Shown here one piece after another: positions 14,898 to 43,248 of a stretch of 64,000 nt of DNA (positions are counted from its first letter, which is position 1; each line of letters opens with the position of its first letter). The position numbers were made by a program, and so were the translations under genes. Below the pieces are notes generated by a model. It did not search any database. It was not told the DNA's origin and saw only the letters and a list, made by a program, of their open reading frames with translations. Origin of the DNA: Marsupella aquatica (Eukaryota; Plantae; Marchantiophyta). The DNA lies in NCBI GenBank assembly GCA_973895155.1, contig OZ316897.1, positions 17,156,058 through 17,220,057 on the forward strand, written 5' to 3'.

Positions 14898-16090
14898 TCT
14901 AACGGTCAGATTTAAATCCAGTGAGATCTAACGGTCAGGAAATTAATTTAATACTAAATCTTTTGAGAATCTTCTCATTCACACACCGTACATTCGCCAC
15001 TTTGGCTCACACACAATACATTCGCCACTTTGGCGAAAGTGTAAAATCCTTAAAAAAATACGTGCTTTACGGTCCCTAGGGGGTGCAAGAGTAGATTCAA
15101 TAATTAGACCACAGTGCTGTAAAGTTTCGGTAGTTGGCGGACTACAGTGGATCGTCGCCATAGCTATTAGCTTCTCTCGATGTTTGCTCCCAGACATATT
15201 GCGCGAATCGAGGCAACAGTAGCATCCTAACTGACCGATCCAGTCCAGCCACCAGCCCACACAAGCCGTTCCAACGAGGACAGGCCAGCGGCCCATTCAG
15301 TGTGATTCAGGCACCAGCAGCCGGGCCACCATCGCTGATCGGTCGCTCGCCTGCCTCCCTGGAGTCCCTGCCCCCCTTGCTGCCTGCCCCCCTTGCTGCC
15401 TGCGTGCGTAACTCCCGGGGTCAAAGCGCATTACCGATAGTACTATTAGTGCAGTACTGTAATCAATAGCTGCTGCTGCTGTGCTACTGCTGCTGATGAG
15501 CTGATGAGCTCAATCACAGTCATCAGATTCTCTCAAGTCCTCAAGAGTCCAAAGCCCCGGAAGTGTGTGGGATTATATTAATTAATCTCGGATAACAGTA
15601 CGATGAGCTCATGAATCTGTCATGAATCGGAGCTGGAATTCTGTAGTGCTTTGCATTTCAGAGTTTGCCTCGACTCTACTAGTGCAATCATTAGCCAGAC
15701 TGACGACGAATGCAGCAGCAGTTTAGATTGGTGGATCGATCATCGACTTCCAGAATGTTGGAGCAGCAGATCAGGGCGAATTCGGAAGTTCATTGAGGCA
15801 TTGGGCAAACTTGCTCAATCTGGCGTGGAAGATGATGCTGATGACGAGGAGCCGGAGGTCGTCGAGGGGATGCTGCTGCTCATCACAACAGTATCGGAGT
15901 TTCGATCGAGCAAAGGAATGACGGAGGGCGTGAGGAGGCGGTCGAGTGCAGATTGCTGTTGGGCTGGTGTCATGCAGTGGGAGCGTCGAGCTGGAGCTGG
16001 CGGCATGCTGAAGGAGTCGAGAGGGGGCGGCGGCGGGTGTGAGAGCTCCTCCAAAGTCGTGGGACGGGGTTGTGAAGAGATTGCGAGAGA

Positions 16091-19000
16091 ATGAGAGTCC
16101 AGCTGCCGTGGGATGCGAGAAGGAGGTTGGATTGGAGGCTGTGGATTGTGTGGGTTGTGGTAGTAGTTGTCTTGGCATTGTGTAGTAGCAGTAGTACCAG
16201 GGTGGCTGATGGCCAGCAGCTGTCTGAGGATGCGCAAGCTCTTCTGGAGTTCAAGCAGGCTCTCCAGAACGCGACGGCGCTGGAAGGAAGCTGGAGCAAT
16301 GCAACGACAGAAGCTGCAAATCAAACGATTGCTCCGTGTGGATGGATTGGTGTCATGTGCTCAATCGATTCTCCTTCGGGTGCTGTCACAGCACTGGCTC
16401 TGTCCGGGATGAGTCTACGTGGGGTCATCTCTCCTGCTCTGGGAAGATTGAGCCATCTGCAATCACTAGACTTGAGTAGCAACAACTTCAGTGGCGTGAT
16501 TCCTCCAGAAATTGGCAACTTGAGTGCCCTCCAGGTCTTACAGCTGAGCAGCAACCAATTGACGGAACAGGTTCCTCTTTCGATCAGCTCGTTGATACAA
16601 CTACAGGTGCTCGATGTGAGCGGGAATTTTCTCAATGGGAGCTTACCTCCAGAGCTGGCGAATTGCACGAGCTTGCAATATCTGCTTACGCATGACAACT
16701 CTTTCACGGGCCTCATTCCTTCGGACTACGGCAGGCTATCCAACCTCTTGTCTTTTCGGAGCGGAGGGAATCAGCACTCTGGCTCGCTACCGGGATCGCT
16801 GGGGAACTGCACGAACCTCACCGTGCTCGGAGTTGCTTACAATCAACTATCTGGGAAGCTGCCCCTTCAACTTGGTAAGCTTCTCAAGCTCCGTTCTCTC
16901 AACCTCGTGGGCTCGCTCATGTCTGGCTCGATCCCTCCTGAGTACGGTAACATGACCTCCCTCGTGACGATGGCATTGTACAGCTCCTACATTTCTGGAC
17001 CCATACCGCTCGAGCTTGGCAAGCTCCAGAACTTGCAATCTCTCTGGCTCTACCTCAACAATCTGACTGGCACAATTCCCCGCGAAATAGGCAATTGTTC
17101 CTCTCTTCAGAGCCTCGACTTGTCCTACAATCAGCTCACAGGTGGCATTCCTGTGGAGCTGGGACAGCTCCAGAAGCTCACGGTGATCAATTTGTTTGTG
17201 AACAATTTGAATGGCACGATTCCGCCGGAGTTGGGCAACGCGGCAAGCATCACTACGCTGGAGCTCTATGAGAATCGGCTGGAAGGCTCCATTCCTTCTG
17301 AGCTTGGGAAATTGACATACTTGGCCGTGTTGGCAGCTTGGCAAAACCGGCTTTCTGGAGTTGTCCCTGCTACCCTGGGCAAGTGCACGCACCTCAACAT
17401 CCTGGACTTGTCCTTGAATGATCTCTCGGGTTCCATACCGGGGGAGATTTTCGCATCGGGTAGTTTGCAGCGTCTCTTTTTGTTCTCCAATTCTTTGTCA
17501 GGAACCATCCCGCCGGAAATCGAAATGTCAATCAACCTCACAAGGGTGCGTCTCGGATCCAACATGCTGAATGGCAGCATTCCACCAGAGCTAGCGACGC
17601 TGGAGTACCTCACGTACTTGGATCTTGAATCCAACAGTCTCACGGGCAATCTCCCAATGGACTTCGTTCAAAGCAAATCTCTTCAAGCCCTCCTCCTCGC
17701 TAACAACACGCTCTCAGGCGAGGTGCCCGGCGAGCTCGGAAACGTGACGTCGCTCATTCAGATGGACCTTTCGCTCAACTGGTTCACGGGCTCCATTCCT
17801 TCAGAAATTGGCAATTTAGCGAGGCTCATTACTTTGAATTTGAGCAATAACTTCTTCACAGGGGGCATCCCTCCCGAGTTGGGCAACTGCCAGGCCTTGA
17901 CCGAACTCGATTTGGGTGGCAATCTAATGAGTGGCCACATCCCGCCCGAGGTTGGGAAGCTGATCAGCTTGGAGATCAGTCTCAATCTCAGCTGGAACAA
18001 TTTTTCAGGCATGCTTCCCTCCACCTTGGGAAGTCTGACCAAGCTGTCGAAGTTGGACCTGTCGCACAATTCGTTGAATGGAGGCATCTCTCAGCTTAAC
18101 AACTTGGTGAGCCTCACATTTGTAAATATCTCCGATAACATGTTCACAGGCCCTTTGCCTGACATTTTTTTCCGCCCAATGATGACCTTGTCGTACTTCG
18201 GAAATCCGGGTCTGTGCATTGAAGACGTGGGCGGCGTCTGCCAAAACTCCCCTTCCTCAGCGTCTGATGGCAAACATTCCAGCCATCTCAGCTCAGCTCA
18301 AAAGGCTGCCATCTGGACTGCGTTGGTCATTATATTCATTTCGGTAGCTTTGATTATGATCTTCGGAATAATGTGTTTTGTGAAGCGGTACGACAAATCT
18401 TTCCAGCGCTACGTGGATCCGGCGACATCATCTCAGTGGACCCTCATTCCCTTCCAGAAGTTGGAGCTCTCAATTGAGGATGTTCTCTACTGTCTCCAGG
18501 AGATCAATGTCATTGGGCGGGGGGGATCTGGAACGGTGTACAGAGCCTCGCTGCCGGGAGGGCAAGTGATTGCCGTGAAGAAGCTATGGATGCCGGGCAA
18601 GGGAGAGATGTCTCACGATGCATTTAGCGCTGAAGTCGAGACTCTTGGCAAAATTCGGCACGGGAACATTCTTCGTCTCCTAGGGAGCCTTTGCAATAGT
18701 AATACCAATCTTCTTCTCTACACCTTCATGCCGAATGGTAGTCTCGGAGAGTTGCTGCACGCAGACGACACAGCCTTTCTCGATTGGGCCACTCGCTACA
18801 AGCTTGCCGTCGGAGCTGCCCACGGCCTGGCGTATTTACACCATGACTGTGTTCCACAAATTTTGCACCGTGACGTCAAGTCGAACAACATACTTGTCGA
18901 TTCCCGCTTTGAAGGTAACTACTCGGTAACAGGACAACGTCACGGTTATCCGTCAGTCAAGGTCACCTGAATTTTGCACCGTGTTGTTTATCTATGCATG

Positions 19001-20173
19001 ACCTCAATTCTACCTAAACATAGCATCCAGGAGCATGGTATGTTAACATACTTTCGATTCTCGCTTTGCAGCTCATGTAGCAGATTTTGGGCTTGCGAAG
19101 CTCATCTACGCTGCGGAAGATCACGCCTCGATGTCACGCATTGTCGGCTCATACGGATACATCGCTCCAGGTAAACGTTTTTCTCCGTCAACCCCGAGTG
19201 TACCTCAGCTTAAGATCTTGCTGGTGGGCTGGCATCCTCATCTCTTAATAGTTCCCATGCCAGCCTTCGTGAGAGGCGGTATCAATGATATCGCTTTGGG
19301 TGGAGATTTTGCTTCCTCTTTCAAGGCAGCTAACGATATGTAGGCATGTGTATGTCCATTCTTACTCACGTTTCCACGGCTTGATGATATTCCTGGCCGG
19401 CTCAGGGTCGGTAGGATTCGAACGAACTGCGTTACCGTAGCTACTGTGGCGCAAGTAGAGTGTCTGTCTTGCTCTGTAGTGTCGAGTCCAGAGTCCGGGA
19501 TGACAACCCTTGAAATTGAAGGTTGCGCTTGCGGATGAGAACTATCTGTATGCATCGTCTGTTGATGGGGTTTAAATGGGATGAGTGTCCTGTGGATGAT
19601 TGACCAAGATCATAACACAACTTGGTGTCCATCGTTGATTCCCATGGGAGACAGACAAGTTTTGCAGAAGTCAGTGAACCTGTTTTAACGAGCCAGGGCA
19701 TTGGATGTGCAGAGTACGCCTATACCATGAAAGTCACAGAGAAGAGCGATGTTTACAGTTTCGGAGTGGTGTTACTGGAGATTGTGACTGGCAGAAAACC
19801 GGTGGACCCGAGCTTCGCCGAAGCTGTAGACCTTGTTGGTTGGGTACATCACCAAGTAAGGGCAGGTATTGGAGATCGTACCATCCTTGATCCTCGGCTG
19901 AATGGTTTAACGGAAGCGCACTTACGTCAGGTGGAGGAGGTGCTGGGTATTGCGCTACTCTGTGTGACTTCTAGCCCCAATGAAAGACCCACCATGAGAG
20001 AGGTGGTAGCCATGCTTCTGGAAGTCCACGAGGAAACGTCGTTGAATTGGACGAAGAACGGTCCGTCATCAACTACATCATGCTCAAAACAGCCTATTCT
20101 TCCCAAATCCCCAGATTCCGATGACTCCACGTGGTCAAAGCCGCACTGCATGAGTGATGTTCCGTTGAGCTAG
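16091..20173 (+). CDS. LRR receptor-like Ser/Thr kinase, subfamily XI, RGI/RGFR-like; exons 16091-18914, 19072-19170, 19713-20173 (1127 aa)
   Basis: Signal peptide, LRRNT cap (PCGWIGVMC), more than 20 plant LRRs, a TM helix ([26 protein letters not shown]) and juxtamembrane WTLIPFQKL. Kinase motifs [30 protein letters not shown] and SDVYSFG join in frame across two GT-AG introns (3384 nt total). Confidence 0.96.
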
Positions 20174-24840: not shown

Positions 24841-26129
24841 CTACCTGCTGGAAAGGTAACGGGCGCGGTGATTAGATTGTCTGAGTCTGTCCACCACTAC
24901 GTCCACATCGTCTTCCAAATCGCTCAAGGCTGTGTTCTGCTTATCCACCTCGCTACCCATCTCAAACGACATATCTCTTAGCTTGTCAACAATGTCCCCC
25001 AGATTCGATAATGCTTCGTCTTGGTGCTCCCTCTCCACCTCTAGTTGCAACTTGGTCCCAGACAATCCTGCATACCTGTTTGCTTTCCTTTGGATGCGAT
25101 TTCTTGCATCTGCAGCAGCGTCAAAGAGTGCTGATGCCCCGTATCCCACTACTGTCCTTTTCTTGGAAGGATCTGGATCCACTCGAGGGCCTTTGATCCG
25201 ACGCCCTTTCTTGGGTTTCCATCTCCTGGTGAACATGCCTGATTTTGACATGTTAAACATATTGCTTGATCATTAGTGGGGTCCATATTACTACTGAGAA
25301 ATTATGGAAGGAAGCAGGTCGAAACCGGGGGAGAAACTCGCTAAGGCTAAATGGCAAGTTTGCTAAATCAATTCATCTAAGCTCCTCTTTTATTCAATTA
25401 TTAGTACCTCCAAAGCTGCCCAGGATCTTCTCTCCTTCGTGGAGCGTTTCCATTACATCTGAATTCCTGTAATGACTGCGGGGAATCTGCCGTCCTTGCT
25501 CGTGCAACATCTCCATCGTCGTCGCTGCAACTTCTGTGGTCTCCTCCACAATCGTCATACAGTTGTATATATCTTTCGTGACATCCTGCGTGCCATATTA
25601 ACATGTCATGTGGTTTTCGAAAACTTACTAGAAGAGCAAAAGAATCCTCCCAGTAGCTGGTCGTACGTAATGGCTATTGCTAGAAGGATCGGAGACTGAG
25701 CGGAGAGTTGTAGAGAAACCCTTCCATGCCGGCTAGCCATGCATAGTTGTATCAAGAATTTACTGTGTTATTCTCAGACGAATCATTAGTCTGGGCACGT
25801 ACCTGCGATTGAAAAATCGCATATGTTTCTAGTTCCCCAACATCTGCATAATGGGAACCAAGTTTGTCTGGTTCTTGCTGCTGGACCAAGGGAGCCAGAG
25901 GACTGCGTTGTAATCGTACTCGTTCGAAGGCTTGTTCACGATATTTTTCGAAGAGGTCGAATCTGGAGCGTTGTTGTTGGCTTGTCAGTCCTCTGTGGCC
26001 TGTGTTAAACGCAAGAGTTTCATTCCTCAGTCGATCGTTGTGAGAGCTTTCTACAATATCACTCACCGCACAACCAGCTCCGTTTCCCAACATTCTCCAT
26101 CTCCGTGTAGGACGTCTCCGTGTGAGCAT
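24841..26129 (-). CDS. SNAP25-homologous Qbc-SNARE (SNAP33/30/29 family); exons 26129-25803, 25585-25408, 25238-24841 (~300 aa; start codon uncertain)
   Basis: The spliced product contains VGELETYAIFQSQ|DVTKDIYNCM...TMEMLHEQGRQI...GEKILGSFG|GMFTRRWKPKK (Qb SNARE plus linker) and QDEALSNLGDIVDKLRDMSFEMGSEVDKQNTALSDL...NHRARYL (Qc SNARE). Introns are GT-AG with consistent phases. Confidence 0.9.
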
Positions 26130-28368
26130 CTCATTTGTTCCACGCACAACGGCCCATCGTGGTGGAAACTGCTTGGGTCAATTGGTCGTGGTGTTTTGGT
26201 CTAAAGAAGCTTGGCAAACCATGGTAGCGAAGGGCTGCCAGCCAGTCCCTAAGGCAGATTCTATGATCATTTCCCTCGGCGTACGTTACACGTACACCTT
26301 TGCCAATTACCCTAATGTATTGTCACGGCCAACATGGAGCTCATGAATGTGTGATAATGACCAATGGGAAAAATAGGACTCGATCAATTGGGTTACTGAT
26401 CTGACTTCGTCCAGACTTCGTGCATAGCACGGGAAGTCATGGAGTAGTCGATATTGTTGAAGAGCCTCAGACGCAATCAAAGCAAGACAATGTCAGGAGC
26501 GTAAACCTGGAGTATATTCCGAGCTTCGGAGATGAGACACAACACCACAATTGCTGACTGTATAGACAATTACATACTGTAGCTTTTTTTTCAAGTTAGC
26601 TCTTAGTCTTTTGGAGATCATGGTTTCGGGATCATTTGGTGAGGAGTACTCAATTAGGCGGCGTATCTCGATCCGGTTGATCCGGCCGTTTGAAATGTTC
26701 GTCAATAGAAGACAGTCTGTTGAAGATAAGTCTTTAGACTGCGCGACTCCATCAGCACCACGCCAAAGCTTATAATACTCCCAATTCTGTCCATTCTTTT
26801 CGGATTGAGTGAAATATGCTCCAGCTTTTCTGACGGCAGTTCTTTTTTCTCCGATTGACGCACTCACTGGAAAAACCTGTCAAGGCTGCAAAAAGGACAT
26901 GCATCAGACAGCATATTAAACAGCACCAGGAGACAAAGCCAAATGGTGAGGAGACAACCTCTAGGACCCACAAAAAGGATTCACGGTTCGATGATATTTG
27001 GTCTAAAGTGAGGGAAACACTGCAGTTTTATACATTAAGACATGACATTCTTCTGCATTCTCGTGAATTACTAAAATGTTCTTTCATGTAGGAAGTATAG
27101 AGATTTCCCTTTTGCAAATGTACACCAGAAAACTGGCTTTTGATGTAGCAGATTCAATTAGCCTCTGATTCTGGCACCCAGGCTGGCACATCATCAAAAT
27201 GGGGGTGATTTTTGCATTTCAGCTAACTTCCCTTTTATGTTGCTTTTACAGTAACCTCTGCTGTTGTACATACCTCGTACCTGTACATACCTCGTACTGT
27301 ACCTCCACCTGTGAAATAAAAAAACCTCTCCTTCACTTAACCTAGCCTCTTATCTCCTTCTCCTTTCATTTTTGTGAGCCCAGTATCTTTTTAATTAGTT
27401 TTGTTGGACCATTGCACCTGTGCGGTCCTTGACGTTTCTTCGCTGGTGGTACCCTCTGTTGACCCATATTCTTTCTGGGTCTGGGTCTGATTTTCTTCGG
27501 TTCATTTCTCAGTCCAAAAGAGGTCTGTCATTATAACAACTTCTTGAGAAAAGAGGTTGTAGAACACTTTATAATGCCTCCTCTTAGAGTTACTGAACTT
27601 CCACAACAAATGACTTGTGCTTACTTGAAATGTCCTTTTGACTTGTTTAGACATGAAATGCCTATCGCCTTCAGTCCTGCTTGAAAGTCCTTGTAACGAT
27701 TCAACTCAAATCCAAGTTCAAATTATTCTGACTTTGACCTAGGTCATCTGTAATACAACTGATTCACATAGTCCATCATTACGCTTCTTTGAACCAGAGT
27801 TTGGTTTGATTCTTTTTGGATTCATGTAAAGAGCACTAGCCCATATCTGTTCATTGCACGATTGTCATTGTGGCCATCTTGTCATTGCAGCCATGGATAT
27901 TGGTGTAAGTTGCATCAATGCAGTTGATGTGACCATTGTGTCGTTGTACTAGTCAAGGTTGTGGCCAAGTTGTGGTTGAAACCATTGGTGTTTTTGTGGT
28001 CATGTTATTGGGTGTGCAAGTGTACTGTGCATTAAATAGTCAAAGAAGAAAAGTCAAACATCTCAATGACTATATTTTATTGTGTGTCATGCAGTCATGG
28101 GCCCATTACAATTACCCCTAAGTCCAATAAGGCACCTTAAGAAAGGTGATCATGAGTGGTTGTTGAAATCACCACCATGAATTCTCGGTCAACCTGATTA
28201 CAATGCTATGTGTAGCATTGTCAACAGGGTCACGGGCTTAAAATTATGGTCTCGCCCCAGGTCCCAACCAATTTGGCTCTCCTCCAAAAATAAAGGACAG
28301 TACTGTAAGCTGACGGTTTGAGTATCATCAATGACAACTACCCAAAAGCATATGTGAAGGGAAAATAT

Positions 28369-28660
28369 ATTCACAACGAGAGGCAAGATCGAGGCACATT
28401 AATGCCTCGATCGTACTAATCAGGGCAGCAAGGGGCTGTGGGGCAGCTTAGAGGATTTTTGGGCAGGTTTGGGTGACACGTCGCCTGCCCGAAACTTTCC
28501 CGACGCAGGACTGGCCTTAAGGAAACCAGGGACACCTTCACTGCAAATAGCCCTGTCCCTTCCTTTGTTCCCGTCGACCCTCGCCCGTCGCATGGCGCCC
28601 TCCGACCCTCGCCCGTCGCCCATCGCGGCATCCCGTCAGTTGCCCATCCCGTCACTGTAT
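28369..28660 (+). repeat. Left terminal inverted repeat of the MULE
   Basis: ATTCACAACGAGAGGCAAGATCGAGGCAC...GTCACTGTAT is the reverse complement of 37617-37908. Confidence 0.97.
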
Positions 28661-28982
28661 TACGCTGTTGCCTGTCACCGTATTGTAACGACTCCAAAAA
28701 TGTACGCTTGTCTGTTTAGTGAAATTGCCTCCCTCCCCCAAAGGGTATCTACTACACACGAAGTTTGGTTTCGGGCCGTCTCATTTGCTTTCACGGACTT
28801 TGTTAGTGTTCACACAGGGGTCGAAGATCGACGATTGTTTGCAGGTCAGTTTTTGGTGTGCACAATGTGACAAGATTTTAGTTCAAAAATGCTAGTAGGA
28901 CCGACGTCGGTGGAGTGGCCAGGGTGAAGGTTCAATCTCAGGCAAGTTTTTTCACTTATATCAGTTTACTTGTGGGTCAGGA

Positions 28983-29891
28983 ATGGCCTCCTTGAGCGAT
29001 GTGCATCGTGCTGCAATCGAGAACGATACCCGAATTGTGGGTCCAATGCATGCTCGAATCCTGAATTTTGTAGCGAGAAATCCTTTCCCAAGGAAATTCA
29101 CGTATCGTGGGTGCATTGAAAGGACGAGATTGGGATTGTGTAAGGTTTCGATTGAAGGGCCGAATCACAAGCGCTGTCTCCACGACTCCTTTGAGAATGG
29201 TAACTACTCTGACATGTTTCGGTTTGAAGTCATTTTGTTAGATGACAGTTTACAGACTACCTATGGGCAACCTGCACTAGTCGCTGCAATTTGGGATGCA
29301 GCGACTACGCTGCTGCACATATCTGCAAGTGCATTGGCCGCTATGGACGAACATGATCAATTTTAGCTTGTGCACAACGCTACAAAGGATCTACCTCTCT
29401 GCAATGTCACATTTAGGGTGCAACGGGGGGCAATTCACCTCCAAGAGTTGGACATCATTTCCGACAGCAGCATATTGCAGTTGAGTCGTACTTGGCAGCC
29501 TTCGCTCACGCCAAGGCGAGGTGTCCACGGGAGCCCTTCTGCAAGGGTGCCTACTCTCGTTTCAGTCCCACTTGTTGTGAATACCACTCCACGAAGGATG
29601 GCTGTGAAATCAGTACCTATCACTCCGCCGTCGTCGCTTCTTGTTCATACCACTCCATCAAGGATGGCTACGAAATCAGTACCTATCACTTCGTCATTGT
29701 CAAGTTCCAAGCGCTCATCGCAATACAATGCAAGCACGTCAACAGCATTCACTTCCGAAGCAGTTAGTGCTGTAGAAGATGATTCTGGAAGTTCAAATTT
29801 AGAAGACAGCGGCATTGTGTCTGTTGTAAAGAGGCTAGCAAATGCCTTCAGTGCATCTCTAGACATGTACTCTTCTCGACACAGCGCATAA
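28983..29891 (+). pseudogene. Transposon accessory ORF A: RPA70 C-terminal (DBD-C)-like OB fold with zinc ribbon plus Ser/Thr/Pro-rich tail, interrupted by one in-frame TAG (29364-29366)
   Basis: ORFs 28983-29366 and 29370-29891 share a frame. FTYRGC-x8-CKVSI-x7-CLH...MFRFEVILLD...AAIWDAATTLLHISASAL resembles by eye the RPA1 DBD-C pattern (WYxAC..CxKKV..RCxxC..YRY.LxxxxxD..T.FDxxAxxxxGxSAxEL). Confidence 0.6.
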
Positions 29892-30222
29892 TAGTTCATT
29901 CATGGACATTTCTAGGGACATGGCAATTTTGTGTTGTCTTCTATCTTAGCTTACACATTTTTCCCACAATGTAAGCAAGGCCGTTGTTCATGCGAGCAGA
30001 TGATATCGAGATAACTTTTGGTTTCATTGTCTCCGTGTCCACAATGAATATTGTCATTTCTGTGTATTGTTTTTTTCCCGTGCTAGGTAGTTTCATTTAC
30101 AAATACATGTGTTGTCGTCTTTGGTTGAGAATGAGGATATTGGTATCTTTTACTACACTGACAGATGTCGGTTGACTTGCAGGAGGAAGTACTTTTTCCA
30201 TTAGCCATTTCCGTGAAATCAT

Positions 30223-32401
30223 ATGGCTAGAACAAAAAAGCAGGTACTAACCCAAATTAGGGTAATGCCCTCGCTTATTTGCATTATGCTATGTTTTTTA
30301 TACGTTGTCTCCCTCTTTTACAGTAGTGACTGTAGTATTGGTCGACCTTTGTCATGTGGTGTCGTGTGCTGCAGCTTCAAGTCTCTCGACCAAGACTTTT
30401 AAAGGGGTACAACACTGCTGTGCAACCGCATAGTGATGATAGTGGAGGGGAGCCCAAAACGCTTTTGAGTGGCCGTATATTGCGCCAAAAGAAACCGGGA
30501 CTCTCGCTAAAGGAGCCCGAAACCGAAACAGAGTCAGATGAATACGACAAGGCGCCAAGACAACGATCAGGGCAGCTGCAGGTCACTTCATCGCCTGTGA
30601 GGTCCCCTGTGAGGTCCGCGACTACTTTTGGCAAACCGAGGCGGGTTACTCGACACACAATGTCAAAAGATGCTCATCATCAGAAACGTTTGAATTCAAA
30701 CCACGAAACTGCGCAGAGTAAGAAGGTGGTGAGGGACAAGTATGCAAACAAGTCAAGTGTCGTAGATGTAATTACTTCTGCAAGTGAGGGTTCTGAAGAC
30801 CTTAGTTCTGCTACTGATCAATCAGAAGAAGGGTTTGACACCGATTCTCAAGACGGTGTACCCAAAAAACAAACAACCTTCAAGTTCGACGCACAGAAGG
30901 TGAATCCCGAACACACACTCGACATTGCGCATTTTTGTTTTCAACTGTTAAGTACAAATTATGTGTTACGCACTTCATGATTTTTTGACACTTCTAACTC
31001 ATTGCAGGCACAAAGGAACAAGTCAAAGCATGGCACTGCAACAGAGGGAGACCATTACACATTGTATGCCAATGCAGTGGTTTGCAAGGTTCCACCTTGC
31101 AAAAACCGAGTCTTCAAAACTGAGAGAACTTTTGGTAACCATGTCTTCAAAAAGCATGGTCTTATATCCACTGGCACGTCTGTATCCCTGTATGCCCTGG
31201 ATAGCGATGATGAGCAGAGACGGCACCTGTATAATGCACGGAGGAGGAAGCAGCCAGGTGCAATTGTCTGCACCTCTTATTATGATGCTAGAGGTTCAAT
31301 GCGAGCTCGATGGAGGCAAGCCAAGTACAGAATGAGGTAAATTCTTGCACATAGGTGATACAAATACGCGCATTAATGATTCATTATGTTTGTGTATTCA
31401 TATGCCAACGTGTGGCTCATGCAGGGCAAATATATTCAAAAGGTGGGTGACAAAATTTGAAGACAATCGATTCTCACATCCCCGCCCAATTGTGGGAGAA
31501 GAAGCCCTGTTGATTATTGTACTGAAATATGTGATGCCCAGTCTTGGGTATCATCCATGGAACAGCCTATTGAAGACCACAGAGTTCAACAAAGTGGTAG
31601 ATCTCATTTCTCTCTGCCCGACTACTGCTTCTGTTGGTACGTGGACTGACACATTGTCCAAGGAAGTAGAAGCCGACTGTCATTCACATTTGAGTGTGAA
31701 TGACCTCCAGGCAATGAAATCGGCCACTGCTGTGCTTGGCACAATCTTCAAAAGTGCAGTCAGTCCGAGTGATAGTGAACAGCTTAGGCATGCATTGCTA
31801 GCCCATAGACAAAATATTTGTGAAGAAGCAATTGCATGGCTTCAAACGAAAAAACACGCCATTCTCTGGGAGAACAACCACGGATGGAGCACATACGAGA
31901 AGAAGGCAGAGGAGGAGTACCAGGCTTGGAAGGTTAAAGCCAAACCAAACAGTTGTGCGACTACTCTACCTAATCTTGTGCAGGCATATAAGGCATTCAG
32001 CGGTTGCAGTGACGCAGAGGCCAAACGACAGGTGAAAAGATCATCATTTGTTCTAGGGTTCTACATTTGTGTTCTTGGCTTTGTCACTTTCTAGTGCTAA
32101 ACTGAATTGCATCTCATTCCAGGCCGCAACAGATAGTGTTTGGATTGACACTTCAGATGATGGTGCACCGCCCAAGGAGAGGAGAGCAAAACCAGTGGCA
32201 AGGAAAAGGAAATTCACTCCAGTCACCAAACTCGTGTCCAGGAAGAAAAAATTGGAACAACATGAACCGACTAATGGCACACCCACCAGTCGCGGGCCTT
32301 TATCGCTTACAGGTGATTTCAACCTTCAACTCGGACTTGCTGGTGGTCCAAACGGGGATCGACCGGGAAAGAAACAAGTCCCCTCTATAGCTAATGTATG
32401 A
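30223..32401 (+). CDS. Transposon accessory gene B (~586 aa): MARTKKQ N-terminus, disordered basic/acidic region, C2H2 zinc finger, helical domain, NLS-rich tail; exons 30223-30243, 30375-30899, 31008-31336, 31425-32031, 32123-32401
   Basis: Four GT-AG introns (donors CAG|GTACTA, AAG|GTGAAT, GAG|GTAAAT, CAG|GTGAAA; acceptors TGCAG or TCCAG) link the ORF-track fragments in one continuous frame. Zinc finger CKVPPCKNRVFKTERTFGNHVFKKH; basic clusters ARKRK and RKKK. The first microexon and the 3' end are the least certain parts. Confidence 0.7.
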
Positions 32402-33570
32402 GTCTTTTGGGAGGAGTTTACAGGACATCAATCGATGACTAGATAGGTATATTGCCAACCAGCCAACAATCTTGGAAAAAAATATGGATGACCTTGGCAA
32501 ACGGATAGCATCAGTTGCTGATCGGATCAATCGTCTTTGAGTGTCATCGGATCAATCTTTGGAGAATTTAAATGTTACGACTCATGTGTGCAGTCTAGGA
32601 GTGACTTATGTAAGTGGTGTGACATTGTATCACGTCCAAAATGGAAATCCAGTGTATTGAGTGCAAGAATGGAATATGTTCACCACTGTTGACTATGGAA
32701 TACATAAAGCCTAATTTTTCTCAATCGTCCGTGTTATTGTCCATGTTATGAATTCGAGTGCCGCGCAGTGCACTTTAGTTTCAGGTTGATGCTCATGTTT
32801 TCACTCTAAAATCAATGCATGCGAAATGCACACTGTTACTCAATGTAGGGATGGTAATTGCGCAGTATTGAATGTTGTGTACTACAAGAATGCAATCTGA
32901 GATGACATTCCGGATGGTTTGCTCACAAACAACAATACATGAGTGTTTTCTCCAATCTCTGCATGGTCGATCATTTTGTCAAAGTTGCGACATCCAACAC
33001 GGTGCAAAATTTTGCATTACATTCTCGTGCTTGAATTAAGCACGGTCTCCAGGAAGTCACTTGTAAACTCTGACATGTTTTATTGACAAACTCTAATCTG
33101 CTATACACACAACATTAGCGTCATGTAATGAAGTGGGGGCCGCACTACTGTCCCAAGTTGCCCCAACTGAGAAAGCATGTAGTAAGTCAGAGAAGCTGGG
33201 CGACATAGCCCATGTTTGACTAGATCCTATGTGAATGTTCCCAATCACTTGCGATTGGGATGGAGTTAAAGCTTCACTCAAAATTGCCGATTGTGAACAT
33301 CCTTCCTTTACAGCCTGTAGCGGATATGGTGGAGAAGCACGAGTCTTCCTCGGCCGAGTTGCTTTACTTGACTTCACATTAGCGTTGGAGGTAGCAACGT
33401 CCTTTGACAACGCTTTATCGGCTTTCTTTGATCTCGTCATCTTTTTAGCCGGTGCTTCACACCCTGCATCCGACATGATGCCATTCTCAACAATGAACAA
33501 GCGAATTTTCTACAAAAGAAGGGGAATATGGTCATAAATTTTGTGGCATACAAGGCGATGTAAATGGATT

Positions 33571-36500
33571 TCAATGTGTAGTGAACGCATCCCCTAAAGT
33601 CTTACCTTTTGTGAAAGCGTCCGTTGTTACTGCATTTAGCAAGTCTTGCAGTGCGTCGACTGCCATCTTGTCAAATTTTCCTTGAAATGAAAGTGATGTC
33701 TCCTTCTTCTTAATGTGTAATTTCTCTGGGGCACTCGTCATGAACATTAAGCTCTTGGCTTTGTCACTCTCGTCCTTCCCTTTCCTCTTTCGTCTGCCCT
33801 TGTAGAGTTTGTCTACCCATCCTCGTTTGGCCACTGTTGTGATGTTCGACTCTTCATTTGGAACCATAGTCTCCAACCTTGTCGAATCATGACATTCTAG
33901 TTCTAGCCTAGTCACGTTCTGTTGAGCCTCCCTGGTTTGCAGCGATTCACACCACGCCTTCAATTCCTTTAGAGCTTGTACTGCTAGAGATGGTATGTAG
34001 GAAACGGTGTCATAAGCCTTTTTTAGAATGGATTGGAACTCATCCAATGGAGGGGACATAAGAACCGCGTCAGGTTGGGCTGGTTCATCATCCCAGAACT
34101 CCTCATCATCATAGTGCAGAGTAACATCCGCAACTTCGGTCATGAATTCCAGTTCCCCGTTTTGGACCTTCAAGTGCACATCAAGCCCTCCGCAGAAGGT
34201 GCCCATCTTGGAACCAAGTTGTGTAAGGAGATCCAGGTCTGTTATTGTTTTCGTCATCAGCAGGACCTTGATCTACAAAACAAGGTTGACAATGGTTAGC
34301 CAGGGTGTCTCCGTAAAGTAAAGCACCATTTCCCTGAAGATAATTAGGCATGAATTGAAGCTTAGTTGATCATACCTGATGCTTGCAAGCATTTCCTTTG
34401 ATTGAATACCCGCAAGTGCAAGAGCAGGCATCATTATTCCAATGAGTAACAAGGTGCTCCTTCACGGAGGTATATTTCTCTGACATGCTTCTCACTGAGG
34501 CACACTTAGTTGACCCGCATTCAATGAGTGTGACGAAATGATCGGGGATTAGTTTGGCTCGATTCATGCATTTGTGGATGTGTTGTTCCACTGTACGATT
34601 CCTTAGCCTGCCTTGGAACTTATTAGCATACATGCACCAATAATGATTCTCAATGAGTTCGAGCCTCTCAATTAGCCATGGAATTGATCTGCCACTGACA
34701 CTACTCTTGTCTGCCTTCAATTCTACCTTGAGGGTGTGGTGCCACCGTTCAATTCCGCCATTTGTGTTCTGATTTGCATGCCTGTATAACCTTAAGTTTA
34801 CAGCCCAACGTGTGATTTTTCCGTGCCATTCTCTTTTGTAGTAGGCTACAAAAGCTGGTTGCGTTTCCTTCCATCTCTCAATGAATGCTTCAGACTCTGC
34901 TCCTACATCTGCATCAAACCAAGCCACATGAGTAATTTAAATTTGTTGATGAGAACAATGTAAGCACAACAGACTTAGGCATATGGTTTTACGAGCTAAC
35001 CAGATCCATCAGAGTACATTAACGCCCCAAGGTCTGCGTTAATCTGTGCTTTTGCAAACGGGCAAAACACCTTCCAGATAATGTTTTTGTCCAAGCCCTC
35101 CTGACGTGCCAGCTACAAAATGTGATCGGCACACCTGGGAAGACATTGCTGTGAAATGCAACACTGACATGTGAGGGAGAGAAGCACAATTAACACTGTT
35201 CATTGTCAGGTCTTATTCGTTCCTATGGGGCCTTGGCTCGCATAAGTAAGTAGCCAGCAAGGTTGGCTACCTTGACCAATAAAATAAAACTTGGACATGG
35301 CTTACGCATTATAAGTTGTAGCATGAATTCATGAGTAAACGATGATGGCATTTGCCCCGGGCATTGCTTGCATTTACCTGATTGCAATTTGCTCTTCATC
35401 TGCAACATCGATAATCCAACAATTTGGCTTCCATGGGCCAAGTTGTCCCATTTCCTTTCTCTTATTGTCTGCCGCCTCTTTCAGTGCTAATAAAACATTT
35501 GTGACTTGCACCGCTTTATACCTTTGAAGGACAGCGAAAGCGACAGGGATGGCATTCTGAAATTTGTCAAATACGACAACAGTGTAGAATGGAAACTGCG
35601 CACAAAGAATAATTACACGACATCAGGATTGTCGTGTGCATTGCAATGACAAATTAAGTGAGGGCAAGTAAAGGTATATTACAACTTTCAATCCATACAT
35701 ACCCCGCAGTGGTTTGTGCCGAATGTGGCATCGAACCCCAGTGCACTGTCATGTCCTAGCACTGCCAGTTTCTTCTTTTGCCAATCAGTCGACCAGGCTA
35801 AGATGAATGGCTGGTCCTGAGCTTTTAATTGCGGTTGGTAAAGGAGGACATCAGACTCATTTTGAGTGACCCAGTTTTGAACGCCAGCTGCATCATCAGT
35901 AGTGTAAAATGGTTGTCTCCAATGCTCTCTTACTGTCCAAACGTCTTTCGGTGTTAGCTGCATGTCCCTACTAAACATTACATGAGCATCCTCATCTGGG
36001 TGTTCTTTTCGCCATTTCAAAGCTACCTCGTCGAAGTGGGCCCTGATTATAGCCTTCGTTGACATGCCAGCTCTCAAATAGCGTTCTAATTTAGCCCTGA
36101 GTTTCAACAAAATACGTGGAGCTATGTGACAATTGGATGCATATGCAGATGTGTCCTGTAAGCCATGGCATATTTGCCCTTGTTTGTCGTGATGTTCCCT
36201 ATGTAACCAACGTACGAGGACCACATCCTTACGCTGTACAAAGTGAGTTGCAGTAAAGCTGCACCTGCAGCCTCGCCTGATTGAGTGGCCTGATAGCATT
36301 ACATATGGATGGTTAGCAATCATTGTGTCAGTTGAGATTCGGTCCTATCAAAGTTGCCAGGCATATCAGTTTTAGAACATAATGAGTACTGTTCAGTCAG
36401 ACCGCACACTTATATGGAATATGGCAAAGACATTGCCTGCCACGGGGCCTGCCACAACACACGCTTTCAATAGGTTATTGCAAAGACACTAATGTTTGAT

Positions 36501-37328
36501 ACTTTGATTCAAGTCGTGCTCCTCCCTGCAAAGGCCAATGTCAGAAATGAACAGATCGTTCGTTTGCATGGGAATAGTGTTTATACCTATAATGGTTTTC
36601 TTCTTCAGGTACACGCCTCCTTCTTTTGACGACAACTTTTGTGGAACCTTGTTGCCCATCACATTCTTCCATTGGCGCTTGTCTTCAGGGCCAAAGCAGC
36701 AGTTATACCAAATGACCGTTTTCTCAAGCGGCCCGGATCCATTAATCTTATGCTCCGCAGATCTTCTAATGGAGAATTGAGTGTGAAAGTTTTCCCTCAT
36801 GTTTTCTCCCCAGATGAAATCATTCAAGCAATGTTTAGGAATCCAAGCATAGTCGGCCCTAGTCCCAAACCATTGTAATACGCTTGCATCAAATTCGCCA
36901 GGGGGAGGGTCACATTTAAATTTGTCATGATAGCATTTCTTAAGGTCGGGTGTTGGGCGATTAGGAGGATTCCATGAGTCTTTGAAGACATCATCATGCT
37001 TGCCATCGTCCTGCTTCGCATTGTCATGCTTGCCGTCATCGTGCTTTGCATCACTGTGCTTCACATCGACATCATCCTGGTCGACATCCTCTTCCACTTG
37101 CATTGCACGGAAATTACCCTGTAAGCTACCCGACCCATCAATAAGCCCGTTGTTATTCACTACCTGTGAATCCTCAATGCTGCACTCGCGGTCTTTGAAA
37201 CACCCCACTGATCCAATTTTAAACGCCTGCATCCTGTCTTGCAAAAGTCCAATGGAGTTCGGACTTGATAATGTGAATACTCCACTCTGGAATGCAGCGA
37301 ACTTTGACCTCAAAGAGTTTAAATCCAT
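33571..37328 (-). CDS. MULE (MuDR-like) DDE transposase with SWIM zinc finger; exons 37328-36587, 36289-35703, 35595-35378, 35148-35001, 34908-34376, 34272-33571 (possible extra 3' exon 33500-33093); one apparent 1-nt frameshift at ~35086
   Basis: N-terminal zinc-finger-like RGCRCSF...HREHHDKQGQICHG; catalytic D in LGFDATFGTN; FPFYTVVVFD...IPVAFA; second D in WIIDVADEE; CSWH (CxxH); E in NTNGGIERWH; SWIM CSCTCGYSIKGNACKH. Exon phases balance only if one A is restored in the run at 35084-35088 (about 976 aa). Confidence 0.92.
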
Positions 37329-37616
37329 TCATGCATGTCGTTGAGGCCCAACCTCGTAATGGGATTTGGACAATGCTGTAAGCACACTTCCTGAATTGTC
37401 CCTGCAATCCATTGCCAAAATTGTCGTGCACCGCAAAACATTGCCAATGCAACTGACAGGAACTCAACAAGAGCCATTCTTTCCATGGATTGTCCATTGC
37501 GCCTTTGCCACCAAATTTTGAAAGCGTAAAATTTTGAAAGCGTAGTTACGAATTCAAAAATGGTTCTCGACTCAGTTCAGAACGCCTGTAGAGTACACGG
37601 CACATTCTTACTCGGG

Positions 37617-37908
37617 ATACAATGACGGGATGGGCAACTGACGGGAGGCCGCGACGGGCGACGGGTGAGGGTCGGCGGGCGCCATGCGATGGGCGAGGGT
37701 CGACGGGAACAAAGGAAGGGACAGGGCTGTTTGCGGTGAAGGTGTCCCTGGTTTCCTTAAGGCCAGTCCTGCGTCGGGAAAGTTTCGGGCAGGCGACGTG
37801 TCACCCAAACCTGCCCAAAAATCCTCTAAGCTGCCCCACAGCCCCTTGCTGCCCTGATTAGTACGATCGAGGCATTAATGTGCCTCGATCTTGCCTCTCG
37901 TTGTGAAT
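37617..37908 (-). repeat. Right terminal inverted repeat of the MULE
   Basis: Reverse complement of 28369-28660, followed immediately by the TSD GAAAATAT. Confidence 0.97.
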
Positions 37909-39282
37909 GAAAATATCGTATAAGAACTCTCACCAACCCATCTATCAGTTGTGAGCAGTACAGATTCATCACTTCTCCCACTATCCTAGAAAGTCGAAAA
38001 ATAGAGTAGCATTCATCATTGCTCCCACTAAGCCAAAAATATTTTATTTCAGAAAAGCTGGAGAGCAGCACGTACAGGCTCAGTGGATTTGAGGAAAGGG
38101 TTACTTATTAGGGGTGTTGGTTGGCTTCTGATTTGAGGTGCACCTTAGGATGCATGGGTAGTTCAGGCATGCCAGTTCCGAGTCAGTAGGTGGACAGGTG
38201 CCTTTGTCACCTGGGAGTCACCGTCAGCAAATGATGGGCCTTAGCTTGAGATAGATCAATACACAAGTGATCTCAAAGAACTAGTTGGCACATTACAAAC
38301 AGGACTATAAGTTCTACCAATGGAAAAGGTTTCTTAGTAGCTGGACCCCAGACCTAAGTTAGGGCACTACAATGCTTAAATGTATATGTGAGGCAAAGTT
38401 GTTCAATATATATATATAATTTACTTGAATTGTGTGAAAGGGACTACAGATGTAATTCTGTGGGCGATGGTCTGGTTGCTTTCCACTCGTTTTCTCCTTG
38501 TTGGCCTTGTCCACTTGACTGAATGTGTTTGGTCTTTGTGTGACGTCTGGCCTTTGACCGTTTTTTGTGGTCTGGCCGTTTTACTCCCTGTCTTATTGGG
38601 TTTTACTTTCCATATAAGTAAAGTGCTCCATTCAAGACAACAACAACAAAATTCAAGGTAATGCAAATAAGTATTTTTGCCCTAAGTATATATGCCAGTA
38701 TATATGGATACATGAATATTGACCAATCAAATTTCCTTGATAAATTGAATGTGCACCTTTAGATCTGGCGAGTAGGTCCCTTGTCTAGGGAGGTATTTGG
38801 GGAGCAAAATTTCAGTTTTTTTTTTGTTATTACTGGAAACAAATGGTGGATAAAACTTTTGTGAAAATTAGCCAGCATTGAAGCGGGCGTCGAAGGAAAC
38901 GTCCATCTCAATCTGTTCCTAAAACTCGGTGAAAGAACAATTGAGATCCAAAACCTCGTGAACACGAGCAATGGATTACCCCAATAACAGTCCCATCACT
39001 GTCTCCCATTCTAGTTAGCAATCTACACTAGTTTGACAACTGTACATAATTATAAGCAAAAACTTAGGTGTTAAATTGGCATCGTTCGCCGTATTTGTAA
39101 CAGCTGCAAAGACGATGCTCGAATGCTCGAACGATGCTGTGAATTTGGATTATAGGAGTTTCCAACATCTTTCAGCACGGCTGTGCACTCAAGCTAGGTA
39201 ACAGGTATGTAGCACGACCTTACAGTGAAGCTCAAGCTTAAGCTAAAGCTCACGCTCAAGCAGCAAGCAAGCAAGCAATTGC

Positions 39283-40691
39283 TCAGCAGGACACAAACTG
39301 GACGCTGCAGTACAGATGGCCAGATGCATTGCCTTGTCCATCGGTGTCAAGAGCCTTGAATCCTGGGAGGTCCAAGTCCAGTCCGTCAGCTGCCTTTTTG
39401 TCCAGTATGCATGCCTTCACAGAAGCTCCTCCGTCATTGTTCTTTATCTGCATTCAGCCGAGCGAAGGTATAGTGAGGACACCTTTAATTTTACGACGCA
39501 GCTATTCGGTTCATTACATGTATCTAGACAGTAACCAGCGTCAACCAGGATCAAAGATTTAAGGTGTCTTTGACATGCAAATTTCAATGAAGAGAAATCT
39601 TCAACTTATTGGATTCACTTGTGTAGCCTTCCCTGTCTGATGCTAAAGTCATTCCTCAGGAATGCGAAACCTTCCTGAGAGAGAATCTCAAATTGCTACT
39701 GAACATAGAAATGACCCATATAAAACATTTATCCGTGGGAATTCCTTTCTTGGGGCACCTTATCGGACGCCGCCTAGAAGTACGCTCGAAACAGAGATAC
39801 CGGACCATATACACACGTGAATCCAATAAGTTGGAGATTTCTCGTCAGTGAAACTATATCTACCAAGTTAAACAAGCTAGTAAGGATCTTGACACATTTT
39901 ATTTCCGTCTGCCCGTCCATCCATCGTCTTCAGGGGAAAGTGTCTACCCCGCCTACCAACGATTGAGCACATTCTAAATCGGTCGGCCTGGCGACATTCT
40001 GGGTCACCAAGAGTCGAGCACATTCGATAGAAAATCTAGAGGAGCAAACGAGGGCCATCTCTCACCTGACTGCAGTGACTAACATATGAAGGTGTAGGGT
40101 CGCAAATTCATCAAACAATTTGTCTAGAGCACCTCTTATTTAGAACTGCTGCTGGAAAATCAAGGGTCTGCTTCCGACTTGAAAGTAATATTATCTGCAG
40201 ATCCCTGGACCTAGTACTTTCCTTGCAACTTCATCAAGGTGATATCGACAAATCACAAAAGTGATTCAAGATAGACATTGAATTGAAACACTTTGTTCAA
40301 GACTCGGGAATCCTGTTGTAAGTGGCGTTCATACAAGCACAAATCTCTGATCTCTCGTAATCATGTGAAGATGGACAAAGACTGAGTTGAATCAAGCACT
40401 TACCTGCAAGCACTGTCCGCAAAGATTCATGCTCATGGGCGGATTGAGACTACCGCTGTACGCCACCCAGTAATCGCTCTCGCAGGCGTAAGGATTGTGG
40501 TTGTTCGGTGTATCACAATACAGCCCTTGAATGTTACCATTCTGATGTTCACTGCTGTAGTCTTGCTGCGTCACGTACACTGTCCCCAAATTTTGTGCCC
40601 ACGCACGATCAATGCCCACAGTGACCACGAGCACTGCCATCAGCCGAATTCTCCACATACTTGGGCGCGCCGAAAGGGTTGAGCTTGCCAT
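39283..40691 (-). CDS. Secreted barwin / PR-4-like protein; exons 40691-40404 and 39447-39283 (150 aa)
   Basis: Signal peptide (LMAVLVVTVGIDRAWA), then GLYCDT...YWVAYSG...LCGQCLQ|IKNNDGGASVKACILDKKAADGLDLDLPGFKALDTDGQGNASGHLYCSVQFVSC*. This matches the barwin consensus CGKCLRVTN...IVDQC.NGGLDLD..F..IDT.G.G...GHL.V.Y.FV.C. The intron is phase-0 GT-AG. Confidence 0.9.
39582..39853. mobile_element. Small inverted-repeat element (MITE-like) inside the barwin intron
   Basis: The 44-bp arms 39582-39625 (TTTCAATGAAGAGAAATCTTCAACTTATTGGATTCACTTGTGTA) and 39810-39853 are reverse complements with 4 mismatches. Confidence 0.65.
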
Positions 40692-41210
40692 GCTTTAGCC
40701 GTGTGGCTAAGCTGAGCTGAATCTGAGCCCTTTCGCCAATAATCACTGCAGCTCTAAAGCTCTAAGATGAGAACTGATTGAGCAACTATGGAATTGGAGA
40801 AAGCTAGTTACCCAAGGAGAATGATCGAAACTGGTTGAGCAACTATGAAATTGGAGAAAGCTGGTTTGCCAAAGGGACTATATATACACAAGTTGCAGAG
40901 TCGGGAAATGGGTGGATTACGTAAGAGTGACTGGGTATCCGCTTTTAAATATAACAAGGAAAATGGGGATTGAGGACATAAAGGGGAAGTCGCTGGAATC
41001 CGCTTTTAGATAACAGGGATTTGGGGATTGAGTACATAAAGGAGAAGTCGGTTACTTAACACCTACAGTAGCTATTATTTAGTTTACTAGGGGTATATGA
41101 ACTCACGGCTCATGCCATTATGAAGATTTCCCTTGCAAGGGTCCTTGCAATGGCCATACGTTACCCTATACCTTTTACTTTACTGACCTGGATGCCTGAA
41201 GACCTGGATG

Positions 41211-41464: not shown

Positions 41465-43248
41465 TAGGGGAATCTCAAGAGGGATATGCTTAATAGGCCC
41501 CCTCCTGGAGATACTTTGCTTAATCAACCCCTTGGAGACTTTTTTGCCCCAATGAGCCCCTCTTTATGATCCGTACCCTTTGTTCTTGTGTTCTTGTGTA
41601 AGTTCGTATAAAGTGATTTTTCAAAATAAAGACCAAACTAGGTGACAGTGCACTGTACCCGTTCAACCACAAACTATGCAGTGACTAGGAAAAAATCACA
41701 GTGACCGTGCAAAGATTGAACAACAACTATTACCATGCGCAAGAACTGAACTGCAAGCATTTGCACGTTCTCGCCGCTTCTATCGACATTAGGGTTATCT
41801 TATGCAAATACATTGACATGACTGCCTTCACTTAATTTGTAAATGGATTTCCACAATTTTTTTGATATCCTCCCATTCCGTCTTTTGGCCCATGCTCAAA
41901 CGGTAACTTACAACTCTACACAGCTTTTCACAAGGCGCACTGCACACTGACCTACCACCCCACCTACCACCATCAAGACCTAACACCTAAACCCTACAAC
42001 CCTACAACTGTAAATAGCTCCTTCATATGGAGAGTTTCCATAATTTAATTGGTAATGTCAGATCATGATTTAGTCATGGCTTATATGAATGCACTCAACA
42101 AGAACCATGGCTATAAACTAGTAAGACAATCAAATGAAAGGGAAACAACCCAAGGTTAAGTTACAATAACCAGATCTTACATTACAAAACCAGTCACTGA
42201 AATGTTAATGGGGGACTAGTATTTATTACTAGATGCAAATTGAATATAGGAAAAACCTTCAGTTTGGAGGTAGTCTCAAAAATTTGTGAGACCCTTAACA
42301 CCACATCATTCACATTCAAGTTGGTCGCCCACTAATTAAAATTGCAAACTGGAAGGATGTACATTGCAAGAAAATGACAAGTATTTCAGGGTTGGGGTTT
42401 GAGGGTTTTCTAATACCCAAACAGTGCTAGAAGACATTGTGGGCATTGTCTTTTCATCACACTTAGCATTTTTTCCAGCAAGAGTATATGGTGCTTGCCC
42501 CAGCCATTTAGGCGGAGGTAATCGGGGGGTAAATGGCCGACACGGATGCTTTTGGAAAACATTGTGGACATTGTCTTCCCACTACACTTAGCATTTTTCC
42601 AGCGAGAGTAAATGTTGCTCGCCCAAGTCATTCAGGCGGGAGTAAATGGCTGACACTGGTGGTTTTGGAAGACATTGTGGACATTGTCTTCTTACCACAC
42701 TTAGCATTTTTTCCAGGAAGAGACTATATGTTGCTCGCCCAAGCCATTCGGACAGGGGTAAATGGCCAACACTGGTGGCATGTCTCAATGGTGGCAGGTC
42801 CATGCGCCATGCACCTCGTGAAAAACTGCGTAAAGTTGTTAATGTTTGAGCGTGAACGAAAGACATAATGGAAGGATATAAAAAAAATGTGGAAATCCAT
42901 TTACAAAGTGAAGACATTCATGTCAATGTATTTGCATAGAGGCGGCGCAAACATGCAAACTCTTGCAGTTCAGTTCTTGTGCATGGTAAGAGTTGTTGTT
43001 TGATCTTTGCACAGTCACTACTATTTTTTCCCGGTCATTGCATAGTTTGTGGTTGAATGGGTACAGTGCAGTGTCACCCAGTTTGGTCTTTGTAAGGCTG
43101 AAAACTCACTTTATAAGAACTTACACAAGAACAAAGGGTACGGATCATAAAGAGGGGGCTGATTGGGGCCAAAAAGAATTCAGCGGGTTGATTAAGCAAA
43201 GTATCCTGGAGTATGCCTATTAAGTGTATCCCTTGGAATCTCGAAAAA
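41465..43248. mobile_element. Non-autonomous foldback / long-TIR element with ~480-bp diverged arms and internal ~120-bp tandem repeats
   Basis: ~41470-41960 is the reverse complement of ~42770-43245 (e.g. CTCTTTATGATCCGTACCCTTTGTTCTTGTG vs CACAAGAACAAAGGGTACGGATCATAAAGAG). Three copies of ACATTGTGG(G/A)CATTGTCTT...CACACTTAGCATTTTT lie at 42430-42780. No clear TSD. Confidence 0.8.

Follow-up and report, generated by a model that had tools for sequence, protein, structure and literature searches.

Why does a cut-and-paste transposon carry a gene related to the DBD-C domain of RPA1, and does that gene serve the element in which it lies? The question is raised by ORF-A, found on the + strand at 28983..29891 of the window, by which is meant the whole 64,000-nucleotide stretch of the genome of the liverwort Marsupella aquatica that was analysed. 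With a probability of about 0.85, ORF-A is an accessory gene of a Mutator-like element (MULE) family, DBD-C-like, kept by selection and broken in the window copy. Accessory genes of MULEs and RPA-like genes of Helitrons were known before; what is new, as far as the literature was searched, is an RPA-like OB gene in a MULE.

The element and its copy in the window

ORF-A is enclosed by a 9,540-bp Mutator-like element, 28369-37908, whose bounds are set by terminal inverted repeats (TIRs) and a target-site duplication (TSD). The left TIR (28369..28660, + strand) and the right TIR (37617..37908, - strand) are each 292 nt long and pair with 97% complementarity, and the 8-bp duplication GAAAATAT that precedes the left arm (28361..28368) recurs as an exact 8/8 copy behind the right one (37909..37916). 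A spliced transposase gene (33093..37328, - strand) runs inward from the right end, its exons being of MULE type, with the motifs FDATF (D), IIDVADE (D), CSWH and GGIERWH (E) and a SWIM finger read in the translations. A Pfam scan of these exons returned SWIM at E=0.01 and, on one exon, MULE at E=0.21, both below cut-off, as introns split the domain; no long relatives of the transposase were found in a search that is weak by the tool's own note. In MuDR the accessory gene and the transposase gene run inward from opposite TIRs, and the accessory genes and transposase of the window element are laid out likewise. MULEs are defined, in the available part of the source, by long TIRs and a TSD of 8-11 bp (PMC6446971), and the element combines 292-nt TIRs and an exact 8-bp TSD with a DDE transposase bearing a (C/D)xxH motif and a SWIM finger, which bears out the earlier note in placing the frame inside a cut-and-paste MULE.

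Two other classes were considered for the element and set aside. A Pack-MULE carries host-gene fragments and no transposase, whereas this element has a transposase gene and ORF-A is a whole gene with an excess of synonymous differences between copies. As for Helitron cargo at this locus, TIRs and a TSD are present, and in 14 ORF queries from the element Pfam detected no Helitron family domain; a Rep/helicase ORF was likewise not detected.

ORF-A begins with an ATG at 28983, 322 bp from the end of the left TIR at 28660, and comprises 302 codons with a single in-frame TAG (codon 128, 29364..29366), after which the frame is open to a TAA at 29891. It consists of a single RPA1-DBD-C-like OB domain (28983..29465, about codons 1-161, with an inserted predicted zinc site, as drawn from the profile alignment and a low-confidence model), a Ser/Thr/Pro-rich linker with CDK-type sites (29466..29807) and a conserved C-terminal amphipathic helix motif recognised by homolog comparison (29808..29873), all on the + strand. 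The motifs first noticed here, HARILNF, FTYRGC-x8-CKVSI-x7-CLH, MFRFEVILLD, AAIWDAATTLLHISASALAAM and NVTFRV, are all present on the + strand where they had been placed; their order is as given, the spacer from CLH to MFRFEV being 10 residues and not 9. The frame had been taken to span 28983..29500, of which the start is correct and the end is not, NVTFRV lying beyond the TAG and the frame running on to 29891. The CDK-site linker, the terminal helix and the linked gene ORF-B add to what the earlier note describes.

Codon 128 is a sense codon in the full-length homologs, and the TAG that replaces it in the window copy falls before strands beta4-beta5, so that a working ORF-A protein is likely not made from this copy. 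The transposase frame is not intact either: it changes near 35085, after CSWH, and a contig from a related copy carries one additional base there. With a nonsense codon in ORF-A and a frame change in the transposase, the window copy of the element is likely dead.

The rest of the window holds host genes named from translation only: an LRR receptor kinase gene (16076-20173, +), a SNARE-like exon (24841-25269, -) and an expansin/barwin-like exon (40392-40694, -). A second element of 1.7 kb at 41510-43205, with long imperfect inverted repeats, a TSD-like flank TCCTGGAG and internal repeats of 113-125 bp, is probably a non-autonomous TIR element, and tandem arrays whose repeat unit is about 60 bp long lie at 57755-58173 and 58776-59128. 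A candidate second OB-like copy at 53972-53820 (tblastn E 0.005) was rejected, the family profile giving it no support.

The ORF-A family and its relation to DBD-C

Word-based searches yielded 13 homologs of ORF-A, 12 of them from Calypogeia fissa, and a profile search against 1.84 billion representatives extended the family to 100 protein clusters at E<=0.001 (64 at E<=1e-10). P0099 and P0108, whose matches were false and driven by repeats, were removed. When the proteins were searched back against the ORF-A domain with tblastn, 96 of 109 matched at E<=0.05. The named members are from the liverworts C. fissa and Riccia sorocarpa (one each among the 10 looked up). C. fissa sequences fall in at least two separate clades of a tree built from family members only, as expected for a long-diversifying mobile gene. 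Scans of metagenome contigs for homolog loci found none.

The family alignment (A7; 76 rows from 110 proteins, short fragments, near-duplicates and long fusions being left out) has a median pairwise identity of 28%, and its near-invariant columns are Y41, C44, C53, C65, H67, F81 and D87. Four of these are the predicted zinc ligands, which in the window lie at 29112..29183 (+ strand) as C-x8-C-x11-C-x1-H: C44 (29112), C53 (29139), C65 (29175) and H67 (29181), assigned by conservation and by alignment to the zinc finger of yeast RPA1. Among rows with a residue at the position, C44 is kept in 71/73, C53 in 69/75, C65 in 73/76 and H67 in 70/74, and the complete CCCH set, spaced C-x8/9-C-x9..11-C-x1-H, stands in 58 of the 76 rows. 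The ligand set C,C,C,H proposed earlier remains the predicted one, and the possibility that its Cys and His residues would vary among other members, which would have counted against the domain assignment, is answered by their conservation in the 76-row alignment. As judged from the aligned sequences, the Cys/His pattern is not a product of chance, and the gene is real and old.

The case for homology to DBD-C is built on the family, the window ORF-A protein alone finding no match in Pfam or among PDB sequences. Searches of Pfam and PDB with small alignments gave nothing useful (CDC24_OB3 in 2/14 at E 0.059). The family profile matches yeast RPA1 DBD-C (6i52_C) at E=2.4e-5; the YxxC, C and C positions and a 'T/A-x-F/W-D...LLG' region align between the two, three Cys falling on zinc-finger Cys of RPA and H67 adjoining the fourth. 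Rep_fac-A_C (PF08646) was found in 5/96 homologs at E<=0.05, one of which, P0080, exceeds the curated cut-off (30.4 vs 28.5 bits), and CDC24_OB3 in 5/96 at the same threshold with none above cut-off. The comparison with Rep_fac-A_C that had been called for thus fails on the window protein and succeeds on a single homolog out of 96, and the likeness in the order of elements to RPA1 DBD-C, claimed from the one sequence, is supported by the family profile together with that homolog. In the ESM Atlas, the homolog P0001 shares 179 features with a Rep_fac-A_C cluster (0.92), and POT1 and MEIOB clusters rank below it.

Structure prediction points the same way, weakly. Both AlphaFold models are of low confidence (pLDDT 41.8 and 48.4), the first returning only noise in Foldseek and the second, of P0001, being template-free and made from an alignment that held no RPA sequences. 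The elements predicted for P0001 (E17-30, E79-87, E99-107, H108-112, H116-120, H124-135, E141-147 and E157-163) follow the order of DBD-C in this low-confidence model. Foldseek with the P0001 model gave RPA, RMI or Teb1 names in 10 of its 12 first rows, the best at E 0.26; neither model gave a match at E<=0.001, so the check by AlphaFold and Foldseek suggested earlier agrees in direction and falls short in strength. A viral fold library likewise held nothing at E<=0.001. With VIA, the top 8 of 48,161 structures for the P0001 model were Teb1 OB-C, RPA70C, CTC1 and RMI1 folds, at Z 4.4-5.3, below the tool's caution level of Z 8 (rmsd 3.6-5.7, 104-127 residues aligned). The fold neighbours of the model include RMI1-C, POT1C and CTC1, and RMI1-C and POT1C are protein-binding folds.

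DBD-C is described, in the text available, as an OB fold of five strands, three helices being placed between beta3 and beta4, and with a zinc finger between beta1 and beta2 that is C4 in eukaryotes and C4 or C3H in archaea (PMC8329085). ORF-A has in common with RPA1/RPA70 DBD-C (PF08646; 6i52_C, 1l1o, 4gnx) the OB fold, the zinc finger at beta1-beta2 and the helices at beta3-beta4, the ORF-A side resting in part on the low-confidence model; its zinc finger is predicted from sequence as C3H, not C4, the fourth ligand being the His of a C-x-H pair where RPA1 has a fourth Cys. Counted with DBD-C among the nearest known counterparts are its relatives Teb1 OB-C, CTC1, the CDC24/MEIOB OB3 domain and archaeal C3H RPA. 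Taking profile, domain and model evidence together, it is established that the ORF-A family is homologous to the DBD-C class. The differences are also plain: RPA70 has four OB folds (DBD-F, A, B and C), whereas ORF-A stands alone without DBD-F, A or B; it has a short beta4-beta5 loop and a long CDK-site linker before the terminal helix; and similarity is at a level of about 20-25%, with 95/96 homologs below the Pfam cut-off.

The groove in which ssDNA would lie appears to be partly conserved. In U. maydis the residues that stack on bases are Y479, Y487, I524, W537, F541 and F590 (PMC8329085, in the part available); by spacing through the yeast alignment, about two of these six appear to stay aromatic in the family and two to be mostly Arg. 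Aromatic or basic residues are kept on the groove at Y41 (71/73), F/W104 (70/74), R80 (56/76) and position 100 (R in 35/76), the Arg being partly like the basic replacements of stacking residues described for archaeal RPA in the same source (PMC8329085). We infer that ORF-A binds ssDNA. Its affinity may be weak, because the beta4-beta5 loop is short in most family rows, few stacking residues are kept and the OB domain has a median net charge of 0.

Between the OB domain and the terminal helix, the tail of ORF-A is a low-complexity linker that is rich in [ST]Px[KR] sites, a motif that we take to be the CDK consensus. There are 40 such sites in 55 tails against 9.3+/-3.0 in shuffled ones, and the reversed P[ST] order is not enriched. 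The excess is significant in 4/5 groups, the exception being the P0018 clade; neither the OB domains nor four other exons of the element show it, and in the ORF-B linker it is borderline. Disordered nuclear proteins commonly have SP/TP-rich tails, which calls for caution in reading the sites as CDK targets. The terminal amphipathic helix was found in 44/55 tails against 13 shuffled. In the window copy, whose sites are TPRR twice and TPSR, a 66-bp tandem duplication (29571-29701) doubles a TP(R/S)R site, and a diverged copy is shorter there; two of the three CDK-type sites may stem from this one duplication.

Other copies of the element and the neighbouring gene ORF-B

Read contigs from four public runs of two studies cover the whole element stretch with diverged copies. 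Several of them end at 28368/28369 with other flanks, and TIR ends with different flanks indicate other insertions of the element. Contig pieces about 85-90% identical and of similar depth extend over ORF-A, ORF-B and the transposase, and one piece of 536 bp that spans the OB region aligns without gaps and with 68 substitutions. Linkage of ORF-A to the transposase in the other copies rests on depth and overlap, because no listed contig spans both. Three runs have contigs in which about 28735 is followed directly by 36527 (regions 28428-28735 and 36527 onward), which suggests that internally deleted, non-autonomous derivatives without ORF-A and ORF-B exist in the element family.

The differences between copies bear on whether ORF-A is maintained. 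Among the 12 best-supported rows, 9 of 12 differences in ORF-A are synonymous (2,213 further differences lie outside this sample), and in the OB part the best-supported rows give 8 of 11 against 22-29% expected (P 0.0005-0.003). On these 12 best-supported differences, the sequences show ORF-A to be under purifying selection between element copies.

ORF-A has a neighbour inside the same element. ORF-B, a spliced second accessory gene with exon limits inferred from GT/AG sites, lies downstream on the same strand (30223..32401, +), and its C2H2-like exon (C-x4-C-x12-H-x4-H, near 31009-31337, +) matches domains that stand behind the OB domain in distant gene models. Six such models, including R. 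sorocarpa P0098, run from the OB domain into another domain. A profile of seven segments from OB-fused models placed the ORF-B exon first among 1,685 segments of the window (E=1.6e-4, the next at 0.62), and the OB domains of the lineages with joined models are only about 25% identical. The fusions themselves may be gene-model joins; they are counted as adjacency only, because P0055, which stands alone, and P0094, which is fused, share 92% over 115 residues. Read so, the gene models show ORF-A and ORF-B to be neighbours in distant lineages too, MULE residence being shown for the element family of the window and the distant homologs being known from gene models alone. In P0098 (KAL3696492) two ORF-B-like domains come after the OB domain, which suggests a duplication of ORF-B in its lineage.

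The probable first exon of ORF-B, 30223-30269, reads MARTKKQ before a GT donor, and in one distant copy this 47-nt start block alone is kept. The ARTK start presumably resembles the histone H3 tail, which offers a histone mimic as a weak lead from the sequence; a literature search on ARTK-type starts for ORF-B found nothing specific, and the ESM Atlas gave no lead on the ORF-B exon (best 0.77).

What ORF-A might do for the element

The reading of function that we favour, tentatively and at somewhat under even odds, is that ORF-A is a selected MULE accessory OB protein that binds ssDNA at excision or insertion sites and is likely controlled by cell-cycle kinases. When a MULE is excised, the donor flanks are left capped by hairpins, which the transposase itself probably cannot resolve; host enzymes open and mend the capped ends, and either end joining or copying of a sister chromatid or homolog repairs the break, as set out in the available part of the source (PMC5499845). 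ORF-A would act in this donor-site repair as a small element-encoded ssDNA-binding module at the transposon ends, recruited through its terminal helix to itself, to ORF-B or to the transposase and switched on by S/G2 phosphorylation of the linker. By shielding donor ends it would bias repair towards the sister chromatid as template, so that cut-and-paste would end in a net gain of copies; in liverworts and other plants that are mostly haploid, we reason, the sister chromatid would be the only homologous template. The full scenario is unlikely in its entirety: an ancient liverwort cut-and-paste lineage with a CDK-switched mini-RPA mimic and a zinc-finger partner, timing donor-site repair to S/G2 and forcing sister-chromatid copying.

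The accessory proteins so far known from plant TIR elements serve as anti-silencing factors or DNA-binding regulators. A credible rival, though not one that we expect to prevail, has ORF-A and ORF-B forming a VANC-like anti-silencing or transcription-activating module, in which the C2H2-like domain of ORF-B would find element DNA while ORF-A would bind ssDNA or R-loops or serve as an adaptor. The two genes are adjacent on one strand and joined in distant models, among them P0098 of R. sorocarpa, whose UniRef name is C2H2-type; divergence into about 100 clusters has been fast, as fits an arms race; and the ARTK-like start of ORF-B adds weakly to the same side through its presumed likeness to the histone H3 tail. 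MULEs offer a precedent in VANC, the anti-silencing protein of VANDAL MULEs (PMC13317346, 10.64898/2026.08.24.746577; each as far as available). Against this, no VANC-type or Ulp1 Pfam domain was found in the element ORFs scanned, and homology to DBD-C together with the CDK-type sites indicates replication or repair over chromatin.

It is improbable that the OB domain binds no nucleic acid and acts as a decoy, imitating RPA70C, CTC1 or POT1C so as to recruit or titrate RPA32/14, CST or Pol alpha-primase of the host where transposition takes place. The short beta4-beta5 loop, the replaced stacking residues, the median net charge of 0 and the fold neighbours RMI1-C, POT1C and CTC1 would suit such a decoy, and so would the presence of a C-terminal helix, since that of RPA1 forms a three-helix bundle with RPA2 and RPA3 (PMC8329085, in the part available). 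The conserved aromatic and basic surface residues on the groove strands speak against it, and the helix of ORF-A is placed after a long linker, not directly behind the fold.

Passive cargo of Pack-MULE type, meaning an RPA fragment that was taken from the host or a Helitron and does nothing for the element, is very improbable and largely refuted by selection and conservation: the nonsense codon of the window copy, the many truncated gene models among C. fissa homologs, and the known capture of host fragments by MULEs (PMC6446971, available part) and carriage of RPA genes by plant Helitrons (PMC7385966, PMC4344730, likewise) are outweighed by a gene that is whole, with start, linker and helix of its own, over about 100 clusters at about 28% identity, by the synonymous excess, by the lack of any canonical multi-OB RPA1 or Helitron protein among the 96 homologs, and by the transposase of the window copy being broken too, which makes the decay element-wide.

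Helitrons replicate by a rolling circle that exposes ssDNA, and their RPA-like genes are multi-OB; ORF-A resembles these RPA70-like genes in being transposon-borne and RPA-like, and differs from them as a single-OB gene in a TIR/TSD/DDE element. In most family members the OB domain starts at or near residue 1, and 0/96 homologs have RPA DBD-A/B or Helitron domains (E<=0.05); the idea, raised in the earlier note, that the gene was acquired from a Helitron finds no support in these homologs, whose single-OB architecture is their own. RPA-like genes are recorded in plant Helitrons (PMC7385966, PMC4344730, in the parts available), and MULE accessory genes include maize mudrB, mutB of yeast Mutyl, VANB and VANC of Arabidopsis and the Ulp1 of KAONASHI (PMC6446971, available part). 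ORF-A and ORF-B are like these as extra ORFs kept in autonomous-type MULEs; the available part of that source calls none of them an OB fold, and no Pfam domain is common to them and ORF-A or ORF-B. Across listings, abstract openings and main texts, the literature search turned up no MULE described as carrying an OB-fold or RPA-like gene; the main texts of PMC6446971, PMC13317346, 10.1101/2024.04.02.587720 and 10.64898/2026.08.24.746577 use RPA terms 0 times.

Two questions of long standing are by what means cut-and-paste elements increase in number and what purpose mudrB and other MULE accessory genes serve. A conserved and unannotated family of about 100 clusters, which combines an RPA70C-type fold with CDK-type sites and is found in a DDE element, provides a concrete candidate protein for transposon control of host repair. 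Should ORF-A prove to be an anti-silencing factor or a decoy instead, it would still be a new use of the RPA70C-type fold. If the repair reading is true, this would be a cut-and-paste transposon that steers host repair by a protein of its own, and a way for such elements to multiply in haploid plants without a homologous chromosome.
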